From an uncultured virus (IMG/VR IMGVR_UViG_3300045940_000149) (taxonomy: Duplodnaviria > Heunggongvirae > Uroviricota > Caudoviricetes), in the IMG/VR virus record IMGVR_UViG_3300045940_000149: 64,000 nucleotides of DNA; one strand, 5' to 3'. Shown in pieces: positions 2,459 to 16,610 of the stretch. The translations under genes and the position numbers were made by a program. The notes under the pieces were generated by a model. The model did no database searches, was not told the origin of the DNA, and saw only the letters and a list, made by a program, of their open reading frames with translations. Numbering within the stretch: the first letter of the stretch is position 1; each line of letters starts with the position of its first letter.

Positions 2459-3706
2459 CTACTCCGCAGCCTCTTGAAGCTCATTGCCCCATGCGTCCCA
2501 TCCCTCGAACCGCTCGCGAGCAAACAACTCGATCCGCGGCAAGGTCGGGAACATGGTCTCGATCATTTCGTGGACAGCAAACGGCTTGGCGCTGTGCTTC
2601 CCACGCGGTGCCGTGAATGCCGATTCGTATTGCTCGCCCGGTGCCGGTGCTGGAATGCTGCCGCGCACGCCGATCAACAGATGTTCGTGCTTGTTCTTGT
2701 TCCAGAAGCCGGTCCCGGCCTTGTCCTTGGTCCAGACGAAATTGCTCTTGTAGGTAAAACCCCACGCCTTGAGCACGTCGATCGCCACGTCGAGCATCGG
2801 CACCGTCGCCCATAAGAAGAGAACACAGTCGCTCGCTGCGGGCACCGCCAGTCGCTTGATCGCTTCGGTGTCCATGGTCGGGTAGTGATTGTCTGCAGCC
2901 CGATCCATGCCAGTATCGTCGCTGTACGGCTCGAACTTCCATGGCGGGTCGGCGTAGATCACGCCGTACCGCTTCTCTGGCAATGCTGTGATCTTGTCGC
3001 CCAATTCGAGTTCACGTTGCTGACGCTTCCGCTTCTTTGACGCACTCTTCGCATCAACCTTCTCCCCAGCCTTGGCTCGCTCGGCGAGCTGGCGCTGCTC
3101 GTCGTGAGGCAACTTCGCCAGCGCGTCGAGCTGTTCGCTAGTGTCGAGGCACGTACCGGTGATCTCCGGCAGAACGACAATGTTCTCGCCGCGGTGAACG
3201 TCGCGAGCGACACTGCTTCGACCCCGACGCGTCTTCTTGGCGGTGTCGGCGACGAAGGTTGAAGTCTCATTTTGAGATTTATACTTGCCGCCCTTGCCGG
3301 TGCGCTTGCCGGGTCTGCCGCCCCGCTTCGTCTCCGGGTGCAGCTTTTCGTACAGCGGCTTGCGTGCCGCGACATGAGCCGCGCGTTCCGCCAGCGTCAG
3401 ATCAGCCCGGATCAGGTTCTCGTCGATCTCGGCGAGTAGCGCAGCATCTGCTTCGAGACCGTTGACGATCGAGCAGCGGATCGAATCCCACTTGAGCTTC
3501 CGTGCCGCTTCGAGACGATGACGACCGGCGATCAGATAGTGCCCGATGCTCTCCGCTGGCCGTATGACGATCGGCTGCAACAAGCCGTTGGCGGCCATCG
3601 ATTTAGCAAGCTCGTCGATGACTTCCGGCCGTAGTCCGCGCATACGGCGGGGAAGCACCGCGATGCCGGACAAGCCGACATCGCGGGTTTCGGGGCCTTT
3701 AGACAA
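2459..3706 (-). CDS. ParB N-terminal domain fused to MT-A70-family adenine methyltransferase
   Basis: GLLQPIVIR..LIAGRHRLEA..ENLIRADL; IYADPPW..HYPTM..LFLWAT..HSAKP..RIELFAR. Confidence 0.85.
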   Translation of the reverse strand: MSKGPETRDVGLSGIAVLPRRMRGLRPEVIDELAKSMAANGLLQPIVIRPAESIGHYLIAGRHRLEAARKLKWDSIRCSIVNGLEADAALLAEIDENLIRADLTLAERAAHVAARKPLYEKLHPETKRGGRPGKRTGKGGKYKSQNETSTFVADTAKKTRRGRSSVARDVHRGENIVVLPEITGTCLDTSEQLDALAKLPHDEQRQLAERAKAGEKVDAKSASKKRKRQQRELELGDKITALPEKRYGVIYADPPWKFEPYSDDTGMDRAADNHYPTMDTEAIKRLAVPAASDCVLFLWATVPMLDVAIDVLKAWGFTYKSNFVWTKDKAGTGFWNKNKHEHLLIGVRGSIPAPAPGEQYESAFTAPRGKHSAKPFAVHEMIETMFPTLPRIELFARERFEGWDAWGNELQEAAE

Positions 3707-4586
3707 CCGGGAAATCCTTGCCGTCGGTCCAATTGAGTCGCTGTGCCGTCACGGTCTGCCCCGCGCGGTAACAGTTGAACGCCTGAATGATCAACGCATG
3801 AGTCTGCAGCTCATGCAGCCGTCCCATCTGTTGCTTGCGCAGATTGTTCAGGCGATCGGCCAGCTTGCGCCCGCCGCGCTCGCGCTTTTCGAGATCCAGC
3901 GCGAACTTCTTCGTTGTGCGATGGTCCGTCGCTTCGAAGCGATAGAACAGTGCCGCCAGCGCACCAATCGGAAACGGCTTGCCCATTACCATGGCGCGCT
4001 CGACCGCCTCATCTAGTTTTGCTCGGTCGATGCGGTTCCGCAAATAATCGAGCAAGGCGGCATTGTCGATCGCTGTGCCGCGCTCGGGGGGTGCGGGATC
4101 GTTCTCGTAAATCATGATCCAGCGCACCGCCGGGGCGGATACTCTGGCGTGAGCAACACCCTCGATCTTGAAGGCATCTGCCCCCGTACGCGTCGCGCCA
4201 GTGTCAATCACCATGAAGGCACGATCATCAACACCGAAGACTACATGCGTCCGAAACGGCTTGTCGGCATGGACGCAGGCGAACAGGCGGTTCTGCCCGT
4301 CCTTGAGCGCTTCCGATTTGCCGAACTTGATCGTATCACCGGTCAATCGCCAGCAATCGTTCGCCATGAATTCGGCGAATCGCCGGATCTTCGCAGGTCT
4401 CTTGCCGCGATTGTTGCCATTGAGTTCGTCCAGAATCTTCTGCGCAATCCCGGGAACGATCGTGATGATCCGGCTGTTCTCGGGTGGATTGTGAATCAGC
4501 GACTCAAGCACCGACCATTGCTTCGCCAATGAAGCATTGGGGTCTATGATTCGCGGCTCCTGCTTCAGTAGAGTTGGTTGCGCCAT
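3699..4586 (-). CDS. ParB/Srx-fold-like protein
   Basis: GDTIKF..LKDGQNRL motif resembling DGQHR. Confidence 0.5.
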   Translation of the reverse strand: MAQPTLLKQEPRIIDPNASLAKQWSVLESLIHNPPENSRIITIVPGIAQKILDELNGNNRGKRPAKIRRFAEFMANDCWRLTGDTIKFGKSEALKDGQNRLFACVHADKPFRTHVVFGVDDRAFMVIDTGATRTGADAFKIEGVAHARVSAPAVRWIMIYENDPAPPERGTAIDNAALLDYLRNRIDRAKLDEAVERAMVMGKPFPIGALAALFYRFEATDHRTTKKFALDLEKRERGGRKLADRLNNLRKQQMGRLHELQTHALIIQAFNCYRAGQTVTAQRLNWTDGKDFPVV

Positions 4587-4725
4587 GACGGCTTCTCCGT
4601 TGATGCTGCCATCTGCGCCCCGGCAGCGTAGGGCTCGCACCGCCTTTTGAGCGGTGTTCCATCAATCGATCATGCTTGGCAGTGCGGGCACCGCATCTCA
4701 CCCGCCCCGACGATTGAAAGAAGTT

Positions 4726-5100
4726 CTAGCTGTGCAGGCTGTCGAGCGCTTCGCCGTGCCGGGCACTATCAAGCGCAGCTTGCCCCAGCGGCGTGTTGCC
4801 GAAATCGCCGAGCGCTTCCTCCAGCATGGTGAGCGTCATGCGCTCGTCGGCTTCGAGGTCAGCTTTCGTCTGCTCAATCTTGCGCTCAAGCTCGCGAGTT
4901 CGAATCAAGGCGCGCAATTCTTTCTTGGGGATGCTGGCATCCTTGGCGCGCTCGTAAGCTGCGGTTATCCCTTCGCGAATGCCGCGACAGCGTTGCATGT
5001 ACGATCCCCTTTCGGACAGCAGATCGGCCATACAACTCTCGATTTGCCCGACGATGCTCTTCAGCATCTCTTCGTCGTAGCCGTTGCCCTTGGTGGTCAT
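4726..5100 (-). CDS. GapR-like (DUF2312) nucleoid-associated protein
   Basis: LKSIVGQIE..AYERAKDASIPKKELRALIRTR..LEEALG..TPLG pattern. Confidence 0.6.
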   Translation of the reverse strand: MTTKGNGYDEEMLKSIVGQIESCMADLLSERGSYMQRCRGIREGITAAYERAKDASIPKKELRALIRTRELERKIEQTKADLEADERMTLTMLEEALGDFGNTPLGQAALDSARHGEALDSLHS

Positions 5101-5221
5101 GCTCGAACCCTCCATACGCATTTGTGATGAGGCGATCGCTGTAAGCACTCCTTGACGGCATCCGCTGAATTGATGTACGCCGTGGGCAACTAGGACAAAA
5201 TGACCGATGGGGCGTTATGTC

Positions 5222-5473
5222 CTAATCGGCAGGGAATACGTCAGGACGCACTTGGTGAAGCGAGAGGCCGAGTACCCGCGCGACAATCGCAGCGCGCTTG
5301 GCCGGAACACCACCAAGACGATTCTTCCAATCGAAGACCGCCTGCGAGGTCAGCGGTTGTCCTGCTTCCTCGCAGGCGGCGACGATGGCCCGCCGCACCT
5401 TCGGGTTCGTCATGATCAGGTCCATGACCGGATTGGTTACGGTTTTTTTAGGCTTCTTCCGCTTGCTGGCCAT
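5222..5473 (-). CDS. cro: Cro/YdaS-like regulator
   Basis: 83 aa, LTSQAVFDW..VPAKRA..VRPDVF; divergent from the repressor. Confidence 0.7.
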   Translation of the reverse strand: MASKRKKPKKTVTNPVMDLIMTNPKVRRAIVAACEEAGQPLTSQAVFDWKNRLGGVPAKRAAIVARVLGLSLHQVRPDVFPAD

Positions 5474-5480
5474 CGCTGCT

Positions 5481-5509
5481 CGGTCCCCGGAGATTGCCTT
5501 GCGGGACCG
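5481..5509. promoter_or_regulatory. Candidate operator in cro-cI intergenic region
   Basis: Inverted repeat CGGTCCC-N15-GGGACCG. Confidence 0.35.
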
Positions 5510-5533
5510 TAAGCTCGCCTATCGGGTTTCGCA

Positions 5534-6157
5534 ATGACCAGCGTCCAGATCAACGGAGAACGCTTTGGATCGCGCCTGCGTCGGCTGCGCGAAGCCCACA
5601 AGGCTTCCCAGCATGACCTCGCCAAGGAAGTCGGCTGCACCCGCGCGGCAATCAGCCAGTACGAGAACAATCAATACTTCCCGAACAAAGAAACGCTGGC
5701 GAAGATCCTGAACGTCTACGGCGCGACCTACGAATGGTTGGTCAATGGCCGTGGCCCACTACCGGAAATACTGGAGAGCGCCGCCAAGCTGGAGGTCGGC
5801 GTCGAGGCCACACCCGCCAAGCTGCGCTGGATCACCGGCAGGGACGTGAGCATCATCGTCGCCCCCAACACCATCGACCCGATCCTCGAAGGCGACGTGC
5901 TGTTTGTCGATATGGCCCAGCGGCAAATCAACGGGCAGGGCTGGTGGATTATCGAGATCAAGGAGACCGGACGCGTGGTCACCCGCGCCCGGCTCACCCA
6001 AACCGAGACCGGCGATGCCTCACTGCAGTTGGCCATCGCCGACAATTGGATCGTGCCCGCCGGTGCCGGGCGCACCGTCATCGGCCGAATCATCGGCATG
6101 TTCCGGGCGATCGACCAGTCGATGATGACTATCCACAGCCAAGCCAAGCCCCTGTGA
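5534..6157 (+). CDS. cI: CI-like XRE HTH repressor with degenerate S24-like C-terminal domain
   Basis: RLRRLREAHKASQHDLAKEVGCTRAAISQYE..YEWLVNG; PILEGDVLFVD..VIGRIIG. Confidence 0.75.
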   Translation: MTSVQINGERFGSRLRRLREAHKASQHDLAKEVGCTRAAISQYENNQYFPNKETLAKILNVYGATYEWLVNGRGPLPEILESAAKLEVGVEATPAKLRWITGRDVSIIVAPNTIDPILEGDVLFVDMAQRQINGQGWWIIEIKETGRVVTRARLTQTETGDASLQLAIADNWIVPAGAGRTVIGRIIGMFRAIDQSMMTIHSQAKPL

Positions 6158-6722
6158 ATTTTTTTTGACTGATCGATGACGGCCGGACCCATGGGTTCCG
6201 GCATGCAACCCGTTGTTTACGCCAACATTATACAAGTTGCCAACAGCAACTAACGCAACCCATTACCGCCGCAAGGTTCCATTAAGCACACCTTGACAGA
6301 ACCCCGTGGCGGGTTCAGTCTGGCGCGTCAAGTCGAAATCAACGGCAAGTTCATCGTTTTCGCAGCCCCGCCTGCGAGAACGGCCGGAAGCCATTCGGGC
6401 CTCCGGTGGCCCGGCGATGGGGCGCGAGGCTGGTCTGGATTACCGCGCGCCGCTGTCGCCGGGCTTTCGTTGTGTCTGTTATGTAAGAGTGGCTGACCAA
6501 TGCCAGCGTATCATCGGCCATTGCAGCAGCGCGAGCACGCCCGGCGGACCTTCTCGCGCGCCTCCGAAGCCCAGCCGCACGACGTGTGGACCGCGACCTC
6601 CGATCGCGAAGAGCTGGTCGAGATCACCGACAAATTCCTGAAGCGGCTGAGCGCCGAGCGCTGCCCGGCGATCGTCGAGCGCGAGCGACGAAGGAAGGCA
6701 TCATAGAAGGAGATCCAATCCG

Positions 6723-7559
6723 ATGACGACGTTCGACTCCGTTGCTGAGCCAGCCACCATTGAACCGCCACCGGTGCGCCGCAGCCGAAAAAAGTCAAAA
6801 CCAGATCCTGTTTTCGAGCTGCTGAACAGTCACGCCCACCGGGAATTCATGGAGATCGACAAGCGCATGCTGCTTGTGCCGGTCGAGGACTACCAACGCA
6901 ACGAAGCCGATGGACGGATCTCAACCGAAATTGCCATGCACTACGACCTTGTTGCGTTCTCTTGTCTGCTGGTCATCAAGCGGACGAACGGTGATCTGAT
7001 GGTTGCCGATGGCGGTACGCGCCTGTCCGGAGCACTGAAGCGATCGGACATCACGACTGTGCCGTGCTTGGTATTTTCCGGTCTCACCGAAAAAGAAGAA
7101 GCCGATGTATTCCTGCGCATCAACAACAACCGACGCCGCCTGCAGGTCGAGCAGTTGCATCACGCCGAGTTATTTTCCGATCACGATCTTGCGATACGGT
7201 CACAGCGATTGATCGACCGTCTGCGCAATCACGGGATCGGGTTCGACTCGTTGTCCGGCATGCGATACTGCGTGCGATCGAATATGTCCGCGATCGACAC
7301 GGTCGTCATGATCCTGACTCAGACCATCACCGATCGGCACGTTACCGCACGGGTGATGAAAGGGCTGTTCACCTTGGAAGTCACCATGCGTCGCCAAGAC
7401 AAGACGCTGGCCAAGCGTTCGACAATGAACCGGATCGCCAATACGTTCGGGACGTTCGATGCGGTAGTCAACGCCGTGATCAAACCTCGCACCGCCGGAC
7501 ACGGTGCCGATATGGCCAAAGCGCTGGCTAAGACGCTGCGCATTACCGGAGTGTTCTGA
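6723..7559 (+). CDS. ParB/Srx-like protein (DUF6551-like)
   Basis: DYQR..VADGGTRL..VPCLVF..EEADVFLRIN. Confidence 0.55.
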   Translation: MTTFDSVAEPATIEPPPVRRSRKKSKPDPVFELLNSHAHREFMEIDKRMLLVPVEDYQRNEADGRISTEIAMHYDLVAFSCLLVIKRTNGDLMVADGGTRLSGALKRSDITTVPCLVFSGLTEKEEADVFLRINNNRRRLQVEQLHHAELFSDHDLAIRSQRLIDRLRNHGIGFDSLSGMRYCVRSNMSAIDTVVMILTQTITDRHVTARVMKGLFTLEVTMRRQDKTLAKRSTMNRIANTFGTFDAVVNAVIKPRTAGHGADMAKALAKTLRITGVF

Positions 7560-8260
7560 TGCAGTGCGAGCGGACCATCGATATCAAAGTGCATTCTGTC
7601 AGTTGCAGCGACGAGGATCGTCACCTGCCGCCGACCAAGGAAGCAATCGAAGCGATGAAAGAGTCGCTGACAGCGCACGGCCAGATTCTACCGATCGGTG
7701 TCTATCCAGTTGCCCGCAACAGCTATCGGCTGATCGTCGGCGCGACCAGATTCCGTGCGGCTTCCGAACTAGGATGGGAGAACATCCGCGCTTCCATCTG
7801 GATCGGCACTACGCTCGAATTCCAATTGTATGAGCTGGTCGAAAACGTCAATCGTCGCGAGCTGACCGGCAAACAACGCAGGGAAATGCGTGCCAAGATC
7901 AAGGATCTTCAACGCCAGCGGCTCGCTAATGTCGAACCGTCGAAGGGCGGACGTGGACATAGGGGTGGAGTGAGCGAGGCGGCAAGGCAAGCCGGTGTTT
8001 CTGAAACAACTGCCCGACGCCGTAGAACCGAAACACAGACCGAAACCAAACCTCGCCAGAATACAACGAGTGGCGAGGTTTCCGCCGTCGCCAAGTCACG
8101 ACAACAAAGGGAACAAAAGATTACATCCAGTCTGCCGATCGAGGAATTCAGTCGCTTCAAAGCCCTATGCGACCAGCTCAAGCTGAATATTGCTGATGGA
8201 GTTCGTTATTGCATTCGCGCCGAGCTTGATCATCGCATCCCACGGCAAGCTGCAGAATGA
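7559..8260 (+). CDS. ParB-like protein with HTH
   Basis: HGQILPIGV..YRLIVGATRFRA..ELVENVNRRELT; VSEAARQAGVSETTARR. Confidence 0.7.
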   Translation: MQCERTIDIKVHSVSCSDEDRHLPPTKEAIEAMKESLTAHGQILPIGVYPVARNSYRLIVGATRFRAASELGWENIRASIWIGTTLEFQLYELVENVNRRELTGKQRREMRAKIKDLQRQRLANVEPSKGGRGHRGGVSEAARQAGVSETTARRRRTETQTETKPRQNTTSGEVSAVAKSRQQREQKITSSLPIEEFSRFKALCDQLKLNIADGVRYCIRAELDHRIPRQAAE

Positions 8261-9204
8261 GCAAACGTCGCCACCGTCCCAAGATCGAGAAGCGCCCGAT
8301 CGTGTCGCGGGACGAGTGGCTGGCGTGGCACAAGCAGGACATCACTGCCAGCGTGGTCTCGGCCTTGTGGGGGCTGCATCCGCGCGAGACCGCCGCCGGA
8401 CTGTGGGCCAAGCTCACCGGCGTCGATCTCGGACCGGACGACGAGAACTCCGAGCTGCTGGAGCGCGGTCAGGATCTCGAAGTGGTGGTCGGCCGGAAAT
8501 TCCTGCACCGCCACCCCGGCTGGAAGGTGTTCGCCGCCAAGCACTACTACCGGATCGCAGCGCTGCGTCTCGGCGCGACCCCGGACTTCCACGTGATCAA
8601 GCCGGACGGGAAGAAGGGCGTGCTGCAGGCCAAGACCGTGAACCCGAGCACCTTCCGCACCAAGTGGACAGACGAGACGCCCCCGATGTGGATCATGCTG
8701 CAGACCCTGACCGAGATGATGCTGACCAGAAGCGAATTCGGGATCATCGCAGCGCTGGAGATCGGCGACTTCCGCTACCGGCTGCACACCTACGAAGTGC
8801 CGCGGCACGAAGGGGCCGAGCGCCGGATCGAGGACGCGGTGCGCGAGTTCTGGCTGCACGTCGATGCAGGCAACGAGCCAGTGATCGACTACCAGCGCGA
8901 TAGCGCATTGATCGCCGCCATGTACCCGCGGCATGCGCCCGACAAGATCGCCGACCTGCGCTACGACAACTCGCTGCCCGGCCTGCTCGACGAGCGCGAG
9001 GCGTTGAAGGCCACGCTCGACCGCGCCGGTGAGCGCAAGGATGAGATCGATACCGAGCTGAAGGCCAAGATGAAGGACGCCGAGATCGCGCTGGTCAACG
9101 GCTGGCGGATCTCCAACAAGACCATCGACAAGAAGGAACACACCGTCAGGGCAACCAGCTATCGGCAGTTGCGGGTGGTGCGCGAGCAGGGAGAAGCAGC
9201 GTGA
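8257..9204 (+). CDS. YqaJ/lambda-Exo-like exonuclease
   Basis: EWLAWHKQDITAS, ERGQDLE, LGATPDF, LQAKT. Confidence 0.8.
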   Translation: MSKRRHRPKIEKRPIVSRDEWLAWHKQDITASVVSALWGLHPRETAAGLWAKLTGVDLGPDDENSELLERGQDLEVVVGRKFLHRHPGWKVFAAKHYYRIAALRLGATPDFHVIKPDGKKGVLQAKTVNPSTFRTKWTDETPPMWIMLQTLTEMMLTRSEFGIIAALEIGDFRYRLHTYEVPRHEGAERRIEDAVREFWLHVDAGNEPVIDYQRDSALIAAMYPRHAPDKIADLRYDNSLPGLLDEREALKATLDRAGERKDEIDTELKAKMKDAEIALVNGWRISNKTIDKKEHTVRATSYRQLRVVREQGEAA

Positions 9205-9615
9205 GAGCGATCGACAAGCTGCATTGCGTTCAGCGTGAGCTGCGCTGGCGGTACAAGGTGTTCCCCAAGCGCGTCAACGACAAAAAGATGACGCAGGCGC
9301 AAGCCGACCGCGAGATCAAGCTGATGGAAGAGATCGCCGCCGACTATCGCAAACAGGTCGAGGAAGAGACCCCGGGGTTGCCGGTATGAGCAAGGACGAT
9401 CCCCGCTACGGCCCGCAGATCGTGCCCGGCCGCGCCACCCGGATCGGCGTCGCATACTGCGGAGGCCCGGAATGCGGACTGCCGCACATCGTGCTCTACG
9501 ACGAGAACGGGCACGGTTACGCCGACGCCGTCATCGACGAGGCGATCATGCGCTCGCTGGTCAAGGAGCTGGAGAAAGCATTCGAGCGCGGACTGAAACA
9601 CTGAGAGAGGTCAGT

Positions 9616-10653
9616 ATGAGTACGCAGGAAATCACCGTTGTCAACGCGGGCGCAATCAAGGCACTGCGCGAAAATCTCCACAAGATGACAGACCAGTTTC
9701 GGTTTGCTCTGCCCGCGCACATCCCGCCCGAGCGGTTCATTCGGGTCGTGCTCACCGCGGTGCAGAACAATCCGAAACTGCTCAAGTGCTCGCACCAGAG
9801 CCTGTTCAACGCATGCATGAAGGCGGCACAGGACGGCTTGCTGCCGGACGGTCGCGAGGGTGCGATCGTGCCCTATGGCGACGACGGTCCAGATCAGGCG
9901 CAGTGGCTCCCGATGGTGTACGGCATCCGCAAGAAGGTGAGGAATTCCGGCGCGCTGTCCGATTGGAATTGTCAGGTCGTGCAGGAAGGTGACGCGTTCG
10001 ATTATCAGCTCGGCGATTCGCCCTACATCCATCACAAGCCTGCAGCAAAGGGTGGCCGCACGCGTCCGGTGCTGTTCGCTTACTCGGTGGCGAAGTTCCC
10101 CGATGGCTCGCTCAGTCGCGAGGTCATGAACATCGACCAGATCCGCGACATCCAGAGCAAGAGCAAGGCCAAGCGCGGACCGTGGAGCGATCCCATTTTT
10201 TTCCCTGAAATGTGCCGCAAGACGGTGGCCAAGCTGCACGCCAAGCAGCTCCCCATGTCCACCGATCTCGATCGCCTGCTCCACCGCGACGACGAGCTGT
10301 ACGATCTCAAGGCCGCCAAGGCCGATCGCCGCGACGCCAAACCGCCGTCGTCGGTGGCCGAGATGTTCGACAGCTTCGCCGCCGGTGCCGACGAGTCGGA
10401 CGAGCCCAAGAAGATCGAGGAAGCGCCGCCCAAGGAAGTGCCCAAGGCGGAAGCGCCGAAAGAAGCTGCTGAGCCGGAAGCCAAGGCCGCAGAGCCGGTC
10501 GAGCCGACCGACGCCGAACTCGCCGCCTACCAAGCTGGGACCGACGCCCGCCGCCGGGGCGTCCTTCGCAAGGCGCTGCCCGGCGATCTGCGCACGGCGG
10601 ACAAGACACGCGAGGCGCTGGCGTGGACCAAGGGCTGGGACGAGGCGCAATGA
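9616..10653 (+). CDS. recT: RecT single-strand annealing protein
   Basis: ALPAHIPPERFIRV..AAQDGLLPDGREGAIVPY..EMCRKTV. Confidence 0.88.
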   Translation: MSTQEITVVNAGAIKALRENLHKMTDQFRFALPAHIPPERFIRVVLTAVQNNPKLLKCSHQSLFNACMKAAQDGLLPDGREGAIVPYGDDGPDQAQWLPMVYGIRKKVRNSGALSDWNCQVVQEGDAFDYQLGDSPYIHHKPAAKGGRTRPVLFAYSVAKFPDGSLSREVMNIDQIRDIQSKSKAKRGPWSDPIFFPEMCRKTVAKLHAKQLPMSTDLDRLLHRDDELYDLKAAKADRRDAKPPSSVAEMFDSFAAGADESDEPKKIEEAPPKEVPKAEAPKEAAEPEAKAAEPVEPTDAELAAYQAGTDARRRGVLRKALPGDLRTADKTREALAWTKGWDEAQ

Positions 10654-10661
10654 TGCCGAAC

Positions 10662-11179
10662 GCGGGCCGCCTTGCACTGCTTGAAGCCCATGGGACGAGT
10701 GCTGCCCGCTGGAGCCCGGCCGGTCAGCCATTGAAAGCCAGCGGTCGCGTGCCGGGCTCACTTCTTGCGGTCGCCAGAAAATCTATGAAGCCCAAGGCGT
10801 CCCTGCGACCGCGGAGCCCGGCCATCACGTCGATGACATCCGAGTCGCCGCTGCCGGGCTCACCCATTCCCGTTGCGGTCGCCGCACATCGCTTGAAGCC
10901 CCTGTGGCAAATGCGACCGCCGAGCCCGGCCATCCGCGGGGTGAAACCCAAACAAGAATTGCCGGGCTCACTCTTCACCAATGCGGTCGCCATTCCGCCC
11001 TTGAAGCCCATTCCGCCAGTGCGACCGCGGAGCCCGGCCGGAAGCTCGATGAAACCCACATCACGATTGCCGGGCTCACCCGTTGCGGTCGCCACGCGCA
11101 GGCTGAAGCCCATGGAGCTGGTGCGACCGCGGAGCCCGGCCAGAGCTGCGTTGAACCCCACAGATGGCGTGCCGGGCTC
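10662..11179 (+). ncRNA. TIGR-like guide array 1 (10 units, first degenerate)
   Basis: Alternating TGCGGTCGC-CA-N9-TGANNNCCN-N9-TGCGACCGC and GAGCCCGGC-CA-N9-TGANNNCCN-N9-TGCCGGGCTC units. Confidence 0.88.
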
Positions 11180-11199
11180 ACCCTTTCTGCGAGGCCGAC

Positions 11200-11814
11200 A
11201 TGAAAGCTGACCTGCGAACGATCGCCGCCGACCTGTTGCGGACGCACAAGACGATTGCCGCTGCCGCCGCCGAGCTGGTGACGATGATGATGGCGGACGA
11301 CAAGTTGCAGCTCGCAGTCGCCACCGAGTTCTTGCGCAGTCTCGCCAACACCAAGTCCGCCCCGCATGTGGTTCGCTCCCGCCGCCGTCCTGGTCCGCAC
11401 AAGAGCCCCAAGCAACCGACCGCGGCACAGAAGGCAGGCGCGCTGCGGGCCGAGAAGCAGTACATCGCCTCAATCTTCGACCACCGCCTGCGCGGCGGCC
11501 AGCGGCTCGGTCAGATCCGGGTGCATGAGCTGCGAGCCATCGCCGAAGCGAGCGCCAGCACCGCGACCAGCTTCCTCACCCGCGGCTACGAGGACGCGGT
11601 GGAAGCCATCGCCTGCACGCGCATGACGCAGCACTGCGTCGCCGTCGATCCGTTCGCGCTGGTCAAGGACGTGATCAAGGCGACGATCGCCAAGGACATC
11701 TTCGAGCAAGCAAAGATCGATGCCGCCGAAGTGATCCGCGACGGGTCCGCCAAGCTGGCACGCGACCTGATCGCGCGGGCGCAGAAGCCCGAGCCGCCAC
11801 AGGTCACACAATGA
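11200..11814 (+). CDS. Hypothetical 204-aa protein between arrays 1 and 2
   Basis: GAGG RBS then ATG at 11200; no recognised domain. Confidence 0.7.
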   Translation: MKADLRTIAADLLRTHKTIAAAAAELVTMMMADDKLQLAVATEFLRSLANTKSAPHVVRSRRRPGPHKSPKQPTAAQKAGALRAEKQYIASIFDHRLRGGQRLGQIRVHELRAIAEASASTATSFLTRGYEDAVEAIACTRMTQHCVAVDPFALVKDVIKATIAKDIFEQAKIDAAEVIRDGSAKLARDLIARAQKPEPPQVTQ

Positions 11815-11815
11815 T

Positions 11816-12116
11816 TGCGGTCGCCAGCACATCGCTGAAAACCACCAGCTCAGTGCGACCGCCGAGCCCGGCCGAAGCCGTTGTGAAGCCCACCAACAGA
11901 CTGCCGGGCTCACCTATTGCGGTCGCCACCACTGCTCTGAAGCCCAAGGGACGCGTGCGACCGCCGAGCCCGGCCAATTTCCATATGAAACCCGAACCGG
12001 ACTTGCCGGGCTCACCCCTTTGCGGTCGCCACTTGAGGCTTGAAGCCCATGATCTCAATGCGACCGCGGAGCCCGGCCATTCGATGAATGAAACCCAAGC
12101 CGGGCTTGCCGGGCTC
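11816..12116 (+). ncRNA. TIGR-like guide array 2 (6 units)
   Basis: Same alternating units with 9-nt spacers. Confidence 0.9.
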
Positions 12117-12133
12117 GCCCTTCTGGAGGCCAC

Positions 12134-12997
12134 ATGACCGCCATCACTGACACCATCGCTGAAATGCGCCGCCATCATCGCCGCCGCCGGTTTGCGATGA
12201 AGGAGCAGCAGCGATCGGAACGGTCGCTCGAATCGTTCCTGCGCGAGAACGCGACCGACTGGTCGCCGAGCATGAGCGAGGCCGAGCGCGAAATCAGGAA
12301 CAAGATGGTTCACGCCATCATCAAGACCGTCCGCGACGGCGACACCGCCTCCCCGTTCGCCGACATGGTGCTGATGAGCGATCAGAGCCGCGAGCCGTGG
12401 ACGCGCACACGCGACGTGTCGGAGAAGGCCATGGGCAAGCTGGCGATGACCCTGCCGGTCTATCCATGGATCGAATCGATCCGCGGTGCCGGTGCGCTGG
12501 GTCTCGCCACCATCGTCGCCGAGACCGGTGATCTCGCCAACTATCCCAACCCCGCCAAGGTCTGGTCGCGGCTCGGCTTCGCACCCTACGACGGCTTCGC
12601 CGGTTCGAGCTGGAAGAGGGAGACGTGGCGTCCGCGGGCGCTAACGAAGGAAGAGTGGATCGAGCACCCGTTCTCCGGATCTCGGTACGCGCTCATGCAC
12701 CAGATCGCGGTCTGGCTGGTCAATGCGCAATGGATCGGCAAGGCCAAGAGCGAGAGCGGCGAAGGTGAGCCCAACGGTCCCTACGGCGATGTGTATGCCG
12801 CCCGGCGCAAGCACGCGATGAAGACGCACGCCGATTGGACGGACGGACACCGCCGAATGGATGCTTTGCGTATAACGATGAAGGCGTTCCTCAAGGATCT
12901 TTGGGTCGAGTGGCACCGCGCGGCCGAACAGGTTGCGGAGCCGCCGCCGAAGAAGAAGCGCTCGCGCAAGTCGGACGAGCCGCGCATTGGAGCGTGA
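12134..12997 (+). CDS. tasA: IS110/Nop-domain RNA-binding protein without nuclease domain (TasA-like)
   Basis: WIESIRGAGALGLATIVAETGDLANYPNPAKVWSRLGFAP resembles the IS110 Transposase_20/Nop region; no DEDD RuvC or HNH seen; flanked by dual-spacer arrays. Confidence 0.8.
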   Translation: MTAITDTIAEMRRHHRRRRFAMKEQQRSERSLESFLRENATDWSPSMSEAEREIRNKMVHAIIKTVRDGDTASPFADMVLMSDQSREPWTRTRDVSEKAMGKLAMTLPVYPWIESIRGAGALGLATIVAETGDLANYPNPAKVWSRLGFAPYDGFAGSSWKRETWRPRALTKEEWIEHPFSGSRYALMHQIAVWLVNAQWIGKAKSESGEGEPNGPYGDVYAARRKHAMKTHADWTDGHRRMDALRITMKAFLKDLWVEWHRAAEQVAEPPPKKKRSRKSDEPRIGA

Positions 12998-13004
12998 TCA
13001 TGAA

Positions 13005-13208
13005 TGCGGTCGCCACCACTGCTCTGAAGCCCACCGACTTCGTGCGACCGCGGAGCCCGGCCATCGGCGGCCTGATGCCCTATGAAACCCTGCCGGGCTC
13101 ACCCTTCCTGTTTGCGGTCGCCAGTAGATCGTTGAAGACCGTCTTGGTCGTGCGACCGCCGAGCCCGGCCAACCCGTGGTTGATATCCAGAAAACGTATG
13201 CCGGGCTC
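13005..13208 (+). ncRNA. TIGR-like guide array 3 (4 units)
   Basis: Same alternating units. Confidence 0.88.
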
Positions 13209-13223
13209 ACTTTTCCTAGGGGG

Positions 13224-13610
13224 ATGAACATGCGTACGTACCACGGTTGGCGCGACGCCGACCACACTGCCAAGGTGATCGTGATCGAGGACAGCGGGAA
13301 GGAACACCCGCTCAATCTTCGACTGGATCTGCGCAATCACAGTCCCACCGGCCCGGAGTGGGGTTACGCCGGATCGGGACCGGCGCAGCTCGCGCTCGCC
13401 ATCCTGTGCGATGCGCTGGGAGATGACGAGCGCGCCCAGCGGCTCTACCAGATGTTCAAGTTTAAGGTGATCGCTGGTCTCGACCGCGATCAACCATGGA
13501 CGATGAAGGCGCATGCCGTGAGGATGATGGCCCACATCATCGAGCAGGAACGCAACAGCCATGAGCCATTCAGACACGCGCGGTCGCAGGCGGATCGAGA
13601 TAGCGCATGA
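13224..13610 (+). CDS. DUF6166-like protein
   Basis: RNHSPTGPEWGYAGSGPAQLALAIL. Confidence 0.7.
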   Translation: MNMRTYHGWRDADHTAKVIVIEDSGKEHPLNLRLDLRNHSPTGPEWGYAGSGPAQLALAILCDALGDDERAQRLYQMFKFKVIAGLDRDQPWTMKAHAVRMMAHIIEQERNSHEPFRHARSQADRDSA

Positions 13611-16610
13611 GATTGGAGTGACGTTCCACGATGGATCACCGCACATCGTCATGCGCGATGCCAAGGGCGAAATCTTTGCGGTGGCCATTCTCGAACCGCC
13701 GCACCTGATCGAGATGCTGCAAATACTGATCAAAGCGTCTCACCAGATCCTCGACAACGAAATGCAGAAACGAACCGGAAATCGCCAACGATGCAGTGAA
13801 CGGGGAGAACGACCAATGGGGTTCGCCATGGCCTATGGGATCTGTGTGTGTTGTGGCCAGACATTCGGCTTCAATCCGGTGCGGGTGCCGAGCTGCCGGA
13901 TCAACGGCAACCGCGAGCCGATCTGCGGGATCTGTATTCCGCAGATCAACATTCGCCGCCGGGCCAAGGGGCTGGCCGAGATCATCCCGCTGCCGGACGC
14001 CTATCAAGCCTGCGAGGAATCGGAGCTGCTGATCCTATGAGCATTCCGTGGCGACGGCCGCTCGCGCTCACGCTTAACGCGGACAGTGCGAGAGTCCTTT
14101 GGGCGATGGCGTGGGAGTCAATCAAGCCGACTCCGCTTTGGTTTTGGGAATTGCCATGACCGACCTGACCCCGCGCGAACTGGACCTGTCCGAGCCGGTG
14201 GCGGTTGTCGTAGGTCGCCTGCGCGCCGATCTCGCGGGGGCGAGGAGCGAAATACAGCAGCTTCGGACGGCACTGCGGCGTTTGATAAACGACATCCACG
14301 AGTACGAGCGGGTCAACAATCTATCTCCCAATCCGCCGCGCATGGAATGCTGGGACAGCGTTTTAGAGGCTCGGCATATTCTCGCTGATGGGGACGGAGC
14401 GCCCAAGCCAACCGACCTGACCCCGCGCGAGCTGGACCTGCTGAAGTGGTTGGGCGAGAGCGAGTACAGCCAATATGGGGAATGCTACGGCAAGGATCTC
14501 GACACGCTGGTCGCCAAGAAGCTGGCGCAGATCCATCTGCCGGGAGAGCACCAGAACTTCATCGCCAACGACTTCGCCGGGACCAGAGGCATCATGTACC
14601 AAGCCGTGTCGCTCACCGAAAACGGGCGAGCGCTGCTGGTGGGGATCGAGGGATCTGACGAGTAACCAGTTGTGTGGAGTGCGTCATGTTGGATAGCCGC
14701 AAACTGCTCAAGCGCAAGGGCGACAGCGGACGGAACCAGCAAGTTTTCAAGGCACTGCAGTACGCCGACGAGGACGAGCGCCGCTACACCATCGAGGACA
14801 ACAAGCGCAATTACAGCCACCGCGGCAGCGAAGCGATGGCGCGGCGCGGTGACCATGACACCGCTGACGAAGCCGCCCGCTCGCTGTCGCGGGCCGAAGT
14901 GACCCGAATCGAAGGCGTGGTCGAGCGTGCGCTGCAGGCCCGGCGCTTCAGCGGCGGCACATGGGACGAGCTGGAAGGGCTTACCGGCCTACCCAAGGCC
15001 AGCATCAGCCCGCGGTTCAAGCCGCTGCGACGGCAACTGCGGATCTGCTTTGCGCTCGAACCGGATGTGGCCCAACCGGAGCTGGTATTCGGAGCAGCCC
15101 CCCGCGCTCTTGGGGATAAAGCGTCATGACTGACGCCAACCAATGTCCGACATGCGCGCTTCTGCGCGCCGAAAACGAGGCTCTTTTAGAGCGCATAGCG
15201 GAGCTTTATCGCGCGCAGAAAAGCCGAATATTGTCGGCGCGCTCCGCTGAATACAACGCACTCACCTCTAACGAGAGCAACAATGACTGACATTGAAGGC
15301 GACCAAAGCAAGCGACCGCCAGAATGCAACACCGCACAGCGACCAACGTCCTGTCCGCATATCAAATGCACGTACGAGGGCTACGACGGAGAGCGATGGA
15401 ATTGCAACACTTGTGGACAGTCCTTCTATCTCGACTACGACGAAATGCGATGACCGCACTCAAGCCCGACACGTACGAGCCAACGAAATGAAAACCGATC
15501 TGATGCGCTTCCGGGCCGACATCCCGCTGCTGCTGGAGATCGAGATCGACACGTCGCTGGAGGGCGTGCAGGCGCTGGAAGCGGTGATGCGAGCGTTCGA
15601 GAGCAAGGTGGCGACGGTCACGGTTCAACTGCCGCCGCGCACCGCCTTCGGAGCCCGCGGGATCACTGCCACGCTGAACGGCCGGGTTCGCTTGGAGAAG
15701 ATTGATGCCGATTGACGAAGGCCAGCTCGGCGACGCGCCGATCGAGCAGCGCTACCACGCGCTGATGAACGAGCTTGGCCGGTTCCTCGACAAGATGCTC
15801 AACGGCGAGCTGCCGGAACGCAAGCACGGCTTCGTCCTGATGATGTTCCCGTTCGAGGACACGCACGGTCACTGCAACTACATCTCGAACGCCCGGCGGT
15901 CCGATGTGCTGGTCATGCTCAAGAAGCAGGTGGAACGGTTCGAGGCGCAGAATGAGGTACGGCCTAGTTGATCCTGAACGCCGCAAGTTCGCGGTGGTGG
16001 ATTGTCCCACGATCGAGGACGCCTACGCCCGCGTCGGGCTGGCCGTGGGCGAGGTCGATCACGGCACGGTCTGCCGGTTGGATGGCGGCGGCTCGATCGG
16101 GATCATCGTCTTTCAGTATTCGTTCTACGTCGAGGTCGCCAAGCAGCACTACTTCGCGCTCGGCAGCAAGCTCTATGCCGGGGCCGCGGTGCTCTATCAG
16201 GCCAACCGGTACGGCCAGACCGCCCCGTACGCGACTGCCAATCCGCTGGCACCGCGCTGGTTCCGCAATGCAGCCGAGATCGAAGAAGCGATCCGCGCGG
16301 GCGAGATCACCCGGCCGCAGATCGTCCTGAACGGCAACCTGATCTGGCGCTGGCCGGAACCAAGGCGGCACTGAATGAGCGAGGTATTCCACTTCAACAC
16401 GGTGATCGCGCGGGTGTTCGAGCGCTCGCTGGCCAAGCGCGCGATCAAGGGGCCCAACTACGAGCACGATAAGAGCGACGTGGTGGTCGAGCGCGATCCC
16501 CCGCAATGGTACCTCCAGATCGGTGATGTGTCGTTCATGACCGGACCGGACAAGCCCGATTTCAAGGACGGCGATCTGGTGACGGTCACCATCAGGAAGC
16601 GTGAGAAGCC

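Follow-up and report, generated by a model that had tools for sequence, protein, structure and literature searches.

Putative stem-loop TIGR arrays built of abutted hairpin doublets around a tas gene of a temperate soil phage

The window analysed here is the whole stretch of 64,000 nucleotides of the IMG/VR record IMGVR_UViG_3300045940_000149, from an uncultured virus of the Caudoviricetes. Between positions 10662 and 13208 it carries a repeat region that sequence and a modelled protein fold identify as a putative stem-loop TIGR (tandem interspaced guide RNA) array, laid out in three sub-arrays around a gene for a nuclease-less Tas protein. Its hairpins stand in abutted pairs, here called doublets, and the doublet is a conserved architectural unit of this Tas clade, since the layout persists where the stem sequences differ. 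TIGR-Tas systems and their stem-loop class are already known, and the abutted doublet layout is apparently not yet described. No account of abutted hairpin doublets was found in the text of Faure 2025 with its supplement, of Xu 2026 or of Guan 2026; the figures, the bioRxiv supplements and the TIGRSafari data may show them. The word 'alternating' in the text of Faure 2025 (PMC12045711) refers to dual repeats.

Repeat layout and identity of the system

The region comprises nine perfect hairpin pairs and one degenerate pair, distributed over three sub-arrays that two genes separate:

10662..11179, + strand: TIGR sub-array 1, 5 doublets (10662-10759, degenerate; 10767-10861; 10875-10969; 10983-11077; 11085-11179)
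11817..12116, + strand: TIGR sub-array 2, 3 doublets (11817-11911; 11919-12013; 12022-12116)
13006..13208, + strand: TIGR sub-array 3, 2 doublets (13006-13100; 13114-13208)
12134..12997, + strand: tas gene (TasA-like), encoding a predicted 287-amino acid (aa) Nop-domain protein without nuclease domain, assigned from Pfam, NCBIfam and fold

In all nine canonical pairs (starting at 10767, 10875, 10983, 11085, 11817, 11919, 12022, 13006 and 13114) stem 1 is GCGGTCGC/GCGACCGC, of 8 bp, the junction after it is one G or C, and stem 2 is GAGCCCGGC/GCCGGGCTC, of 9 bp. The loop is exactly 30 nt long in 18 of the 18 canonical hairpins, giving units of 8+30+8 = 46 nt and 9+30+9 = 48 nt. The degenerate pair at 10662-10759 has a stem of 6 bp (GCGGGC/GCCCGC) and a junction of 2 nt (TG). 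Linkers are confined to the gaps between pairs and measure 7, 13, 13 and 7 nt in sub-array 1, 7 and 8 nt in sub-array 2, and 13 nt in sub-array 3. An earlier note, made from the letters alone, had claimed a strict alternation of type 1 and type 2 stems over 10 pairs, with a 1-nt gap inside pairs (2 nt in the degenerate first one) and variable linkers only between pairs, and it was right on each of these counts. Tandem Repeats Finder gives periods of 108 and 103. Within the window, 10 of the 13 GAGCCCGGC sites and 10 of the 14 GCCGGGCTC sites fall inside these 2.5 kb, and the clustering of pairs is not due to chance.

Read as RNA, each hairpin runs from CCA through a 9-nt spacer A, the loop element UGAAGCCCA and a 9-nt spacer B to UG; the loop element, too, has UG at its start and CCA at its end. 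In DNA letters the loop consists of CA, nine variable nt, TGAAGCCCA, a further nine variable nt and T. The pattern CCA-N9-TG-N4-CCA-N9-TG, with at most 2 mismatches, fits all 18 canonical units and recurs in 25 related loci. The lean of the loop centre towards a different sequence in each hairpin type, also pointed out in the note, is real but weak, six of the nine canonical type-1 units having TGAAGCCCA and three of the nine type-2 units TGAAACCCA. Unit 13053 has a disturbed loop (13062-13091) holding two loop-repeat-like elements, TGATGCCCT then ATGAAACCC, and is probably a decayed or shifted unit. In unit 10983 (10993-11019) spacers A (TTCCGCCCT) and B (TTCCGCCAG) have 7 nt in common, so that the predicted target would be a near-perfect inverted repeat (TTCCGCC..GGCGGAA), operator-like. 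Rfam and tRNA scans of the window returned no matches.

This organization follows that of the published systems, by analogy with which each hairpin would be one dual-spacer tigRNA. TIGR edge and loop repeats carry UG...CCA boxes around two 9-nt spacers, and the same text describes the stem-loop class (Faure 2025 Science, PMC12045711); a 46-nt stem-loop tigRNA is bound by one dimer of PlTasA (Guan 2026 preprint). In the window the closing pair is C-G, the stem ending in CCA before spacer A and resuming with UG after spacer B, so that the stem replaces the edge repeat. Two hallmarks of TIGR-Tas are present, namely a predicted Nop-type Tas protein and an adjoining array with two short spacers, UG...CCA boxes and a loop element. 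Each pair of spacers is enclosed by palindromic flanks that make a stem, as in the stem-loop class.

The 287-aa protein matches Transposase_20 alone in Pfam (E 3.1e-5, residues 113-163). In NCBIfam it matches TIGR_Tas_endo (E 6.7e-16) and IS110 (E 1.3e-8), the latter restricted to model positions 117-263 of 343, in the C-terminal two thirds. Its AlphaFold (AF2) model has a predicted local distance difference test (pLDDT) of 86.6, and Foldseek places the 9mty TIGR-TasR and TasH complexes as best hits (probability 1.00), followed by the IS621 and ISCro4 recombinases. Sequence and model point to a Tas protein, which would be TasA-like as it has no nuclease domain. Residues 154-169 (12593-12640) form an almost invariant loop, GxAGSxWKRExWRPR, that is disordered in the model (pLDDT below 50). 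IS110 recombinases have their catalytic serine at about this place, and S158 might correspond to it.

The likeness to IS110 bridge RNAs drawn in the earlier note holds as kinship of the protein, whose fold resembles TasR/TasH and then IS621/ISCro4, but the region appears to be a TIGR-Tas array, not an IS110 element. An IS110 family element was considered and rejected. Its N-terminal DEDD (RuvC-like) domain is missing from the 287-aa protein, in which Transposase_20 is found at 113-163 alone, and there are ten two-hairpin modules in three arrays of a phage operon rather than one two-loop RNA at the element end. IS110/IS621 recombinases and bridge RNAs share with the present system a related RNA-binding fold and two stem-loops, each with two short guide segments. 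They differ in that Tas here lacks the DEDD/RuvC domain (the NCBIfam match covers positions 117-263 of 343), that many tandem modules stand in place of one RNA per element, and that the guides lie in hairpin loops instead of internal loops.

The closest known systems are the stem-loop TIGR-TasA arrays, represented by PlTasA of a Peromyscus leucopus gut contig (PMC12045711, Guan 2026, Xu 2026). As far as their published text goes, they have in common with the window a nuclease-less Nop-domain Tas, hairpins with two 9-nt spacers between boxes, a 9-nt loop repeat, a 46-nt unit, several sub-arrays surrounding the gene, and a phage origin. The arrays here differ by their abutted pairs, two fixed stem classes and one linker per pair, whereas in that text the stems diverge inside an array and linkers lie between units; the arrays of the window also form coupled reading frames of their own. 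Dual-repeat TIGR arrays (TasR, TasH, FpTasA) share the UG...CCA edge and loop elements, the 9-nt spacers and a conserved loop repeat, and their tigRNAs are 36 nt long and cut inside the edge repeat. The edge elements of the window are, in contrast, long and of two alternating kinds (21 nt and 27-36 nt), and being mutually complementary they form stems, unlike those of dual-repeat arrays.

Doublets in related Tas loci

The search for relatives of Tas gave 293 proteins at E<=0.001 among 1656 candidates, and 25 loci were fetched, one from genome_contigs (a metagenome-assembled genome of Xanthobacteraceae) and 24 from IMG/VR. Duplicates recognized by their unit lists (L010=L008, L015=L014, L018=L017) were dropped before counting, so that the counts below refer to 22 loci and the window. 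Units were scanned on the tas strand as CCA-N9-TG-N4-CCA-N9-TG with at most 2 mismatches and a closing stem of at least 6 bp, and hairpins were joined at a gap of at most 3 nt.

By this motif and stem scan, arrays are present in every fetched locus and always flank the Tas gene, and short and long gaps between hairpins alternate in every locus. The survey of homologous arrays proposed in the earlier note found alternation in the 22 non-redundant loci as in the window. Grouping yields 177 doublets and 4 triplets, besides 50 apparent singles; next to 19 of these singles lies an abutting hairpin (stem of at least 8 bp, within 4 nt) that the motif filter missed. Measured between closing pairs, loop 1 and loop 2 lie 18-19 nt apart in 143 of 185 junctions (range 16-24), and loop 2 and the next loop 1 lie 18-42 nt apart (mean 29.5). 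In 161 of the 185 junctions the second stem is the longer one. Within doublets the hairpins abut within 3 nt, the junction being a single C or an overlap, and each doublet is followed by a pyrimidine-rich linker of 4-25 nt with the common pattern ACCYWTC..CGAAY.

Close relatives carry the stems of the window or compensated variants of them, for instance GAG.../...CTC changed to GCG.../...CGC. Distant ones (L001, L017 and L022-L025, 46-55% identity) have other, more variable stems yet preserve the abutted short-plus-long arrangement. In nearly all sources a stem resembles those at its own position of the doublet more than those at the other, with L024 as an exception and L002 having too few doublets; the loop repeat, too, differs by position in L002, L003, L005-L008 and the window. 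In an alignment of 86 doublets from 23 sources, 14 of 16 pairs show changes on both sides, and the covariation score is reached by 0 of 500 shuffles. Computed folding of a single doublet gives two hairpins. Spacers are almost completely turned over between loci while the layout is kept.

The repeating module of the clade being a doublet, the stem alternation of the window finds its explanation. The earlier note had proposed a two-hairpin unit of ~96 nt with four spacers. As a repeating architectural module of ~95 nt this unit stands throughout the clade, but a joint action of its hairpins is unsupported, the spacers of a pair being no more alike than random ones. Alternation and pairing are nevertheless separate features, as learned from another Tas-like or IS110-like family found in Hyphomicrobiales-order genomes (L028, 379-750; L029, minus strand, 230-2283). 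Its arrays have 30-nt loops, the alternating stems GAGAGAGCGTC and GCCCGGCGTC and the loop repeat CGCAACCCA, and differ from those of the present clade in that hairpins follow one another at regular intervals, 22-29 nt in L028, and abutted pairs are absent. The note's other suggestion, that alternation prevents mispairing between neighbours, is plausible for the difference between the stems and leaves the alternating spacing unexplained.

Half-spacers are reused with new partners. CCACTGCTC is spacer A of units 11919 (11929-11937) and 13006 (13016-13024), whose spacers B differ; locus L019 has units (A1,B1), (A1,B2) and (A2,B2), and reuse is also seen in L006-L008. This suggests exchange at conserved elements or targeting of shared half-sites.

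Reading frames, transcripts, targets and genomic context

Each sub-array of the window lies within an open reading frame (ORF) that is coupled to its neighbours:

10650..11210, + strand: open frame spanning sub-array 1, with an ATG that overlaps the stop of recT (ATGA) and a stop 8 nt past the companion gene ATG at 11200
11811..12137, + strand: open frame spanning sub-array 2, joined by an ATGA overlap to the companion stop at its start and to the tas ATG at its end
13000..13227, + strand: open frame spanning sub-array 3, with an ATG 2 nt past the stop of tas and a stop overlapping the start codon of the DUF6166 gene (ATG at 13224)

All three share one frame, which translates as AVA-xxx-LKP-xxx-VRPPSPA-xxx-VKP-xxx-LPGSP. 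The lone period of 103 nt, in array 2, brings a frame shift immediately ahead of a spacer in which a TGA would otherwise stand in frame. Of 104 doublet periods, 84 are divisible by 3 (binomial p 4e-23; multiples seen are 102, 105, 108, 111, 114, 117, 120 and 123). Some frame is fully open in 35 of the 45 arrays with at least 4 units. Shuffling of bases within spacers lowers this count to 18.5 +/- 2.7, with 0 of 300 shuffles reaching 35, and rotation of spacers by 1-8 nt lowers it to 16-28. Spacers avoid in-frame stops. Among 16 sources with a unit at most 80 nt upstream of tas, 8 have an ATGA overlap with tas, 5 an in-frame run into tas, and 3 neither. Arrays inside the tas coding sequence without frame break are reported in the text of the Xu 2026 preprint, in which no mention of spacer stop avoidance or of separate coupled frames was found.

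In three soil RNA libraries there are contigs that cover the arrays and run across the gene-array borders, consistent with one transcript across genes and arrays, DNA carry-over being possible. Their ends are scattered. One contig, which has an adaptor at either end, begins at 13105 within a linker, between ACCC and UUCC, and a contig of a second study ends at 13109, which is too little for calling a processing site. A promoter and terminator scan of 4500-15000 stayed at or below shuffle levels and gave no + strand site between 10600 and 13300.

TIGR cleavage leaves 8-nt 3' overhangs (Faure 2025, PMC12045711), a geometry that fits a target composed of spacer A and, after it, spacer B in reverse complement; both spacer geometries were tried in local target searches. 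No self-target with at most 1 mismatch was found in the 64-kb window (both geometries, gaps 0-2), and comparison of all units with all loci and the window gave 0 exact matches and 1 with one mismatch, the chance level. Exact scans of IMG/VR with five composite targets matched 1, 5, 4, 14 and 3 stretches. The earlier note had proposed asking whether paired units target linked loci; in these scans the matches of the two hairpins of a doublet never lay on one contig. Among the 14 matches of unit 13006 (13006-13051), 7 loci, with 5 distinct sequences between them, belong to a single tape-measure gene family. There, spacer A plus the reverse complement of spacer B matches 18 of 18 positions, with a 2-nt gap, at a conserved site (peptide ADFAEQW) in L041, L043, L047, L048 and L053. 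Counted as independent events the matches of this unit number ~6, near chance. Its partner hairpin has no match in those tape-measure phage records, and no other unit of the window or of its relatives scores above the reversed-spacer control in those 5 phages. The tape-measure site is a lead for unit 13006, not an established target, and no targets are established for the arrays.

The window belongs to a temperate tailed soil phage or prophage of 62% G+C; it encodes an integrase, lysis functions and a module for baseplate and sheath that is Mu-like. The early operon on the + strand runs through a helix-turn-helix regulator, two ParB-like genes, YqaJ, RecT, array 1, the 204-216-aa gene, array 2, the 287-aa gene, array 3 and DUF6166. 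Its genes adjoining or preceding the arrays are:

8257..9204, + strand: YqaJ exonuclease (Pfam), upstream in the same operon
9472..10653, + strand: RecT annealase (Pfam), upstream in the same operon
11200..11814, + strand: companion gene (204-216 aa, all-helical; tblastn, ORF clustering), between sub-arrays 1 and 2
13224..13610, + strand: DUF6166 gene (Pfam, E 2.1e-27), directly 3' of sub-array 3

Companion homologues adjoin tas in L003, L004, L009, L012, L014/L015 and L016 by tblastn. The ORF cluster adds L005-L008, L010, L023 and L025, its 12 members being 11 loci (one duplicate) and the window. The companion protein carries a basic disordered linker and has no Pfam, NCBIfam or PHROG match; its AF2 model (pLDDT 79.3) has no PDB match at E<=0.001. 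YqaJ and RecT are neighbours of tas, in varying order, in 11 of the 25 related loci (L002, L004-L008, L010, L012, L016, L020, L022). A gene at 2459-3706 on the minus strand encodes a ParB N-terminal domain fused to an MT-A70 DNA methyltransferase, and the two further ParB-like genes of the tas operon lie at 6723-8260. ParB-like genes share an operon with some tasA genes (Faure 2025, PMC12045711). The nearest virus record, G001, overlaps the window at 13465-14100 only and is without arrays.

Models for the paired hairpins

We favour an account that combines a TIGR array, a doublet as its module, independent guides and coupled reading frames, and we give it as a whole rather better than even credence. 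Touching hairpins would need different arms to fold unambiguously, hence the two stem classes. The linker would be the only single-stranded place for a processing cut, and with one linker per two hairpins the first product would be a two-hairpin RNA of ~95-100 nt. Stem-loop tigRNAs are described as cut in linkers, at CUU at the stem base (Xu 2026 preprint). Each loop would then load one TasA dimer, which would bind DNA through 9+9 nt on opposite strands with no cutting, and we lean towards the two hairpins being independent guides. The array also stays translatable throughout, probably to keep translation of the operon coupled across it.

A number of points weigh against this account. The published TasA hairpins are single, with linkers between all units, so that processing at the junction is possible. 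The 4 triplets (L002, L016) and up to 31 genuine singles mean that cluster size is not strictly two. The 99.6% of paired cells in the doublet alignment is a share inflated by the motif-plus-stem (6-bp) unit filter. The minimum-energy fold of a whole array shows nested long-range mispairing and no local hairpins, and such a fold is uninformative on local structure; the register that pairs the 3' arm of stem 1 with the 5' arm of the next stem 1 reaches -62.8 against -63.8 kcal/mol. Finally, the TIGR_Tas_endo match of the 287-aa protein, at 58.9 bits, lies below the curated cutoff of 100.

The two-hairpin RNA could alternatively remain intact as the working guide, holding two TasA dimers a fixed ~18-19 nt of helix apart and addressing a pair of 18-bp DNA sites simultaneously. 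It would resemble an IS110 bridge RNA, but with no recombination, and would serve for looping or tethering DNA or for greater specificity. Between the hairpins no single-stranded nucleotide is available for cutting, the loop-to-loop spacing is conserved although split differently between the stems, and both stems and loop repeats fall into classes that go with their position. The fold of Tas is akin to those of IS621 and ISCro4, and bridge RNAs are said to look like two fused tigRNAs (Faure 2025, PMC12045711). The spacers of the 177 doublets, however, share a mean word of 3.88, against 3.89 in 1556 control pairs, triplets and singles occur, and the solved stem-loop TasA complex described in the Guan 2026 preprint is one dimer on one hairpin. 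Moreover, in the one doublet with database matches the partner is unmatched (at most 3 mismatches, 2-nt gap) in the same 5 phage records. We regard an intact guide as less likely than not. Taken further, doublets might form a natural tandem array of bridge-RNA-like molecules in which two TasA dimers per RNA join two unrelated 18-bp DNA sites. They would then be a living intermediate between the single tigRNA and the two-loop IS110 bridge RNA, the same DNA being translated so that guide production and operon translation are coupled. We regard this wider scheme as unlikely, if conceivable.

The independent-guide account also has to be set against two explanations in which the pair or the hairpin is incidental. 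Alternation could be the passive by-product of duplication of two-unit blocks, with no selection on the pair, as the recurrence of the same two stems within close relatives would allow. This we judge improbable in view of the abutted short-plus-long layout kept in L001, L017 and L022-L025 despite different, variable stems, of a spacing far tighter within pairs than between them, and of the near-complete turnover of spacers between loci that keep the layout. That the region is mainly a proline-rich protein repeat, or a set of REP- or attC-like DNA palindromes, is harder still to credit: the arrays do read as open frames whose period is divisible by 3, but both stems are kept by compensatory changes, hypervariable spacers lie between fixed boxes, and the arrays are always beside a Tas gene.

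First described in 2025, TIGR-Tas still poses the question of how its stem-loop arrays are assembled, processed and enlarged. A clade of fused pairs at fixed spacing offers a direct test of whether Tas complexes work in twos, like IS110 recombinases with their two-loop bridge RNA, and with it a test of the proposed evolutionary link between TIGR-Tas and IS110. Stop-free spacers and steps of three place the guides under a second, coding constraint that limits the possible spacers, suggesting that translation and guide maturation are coupled.

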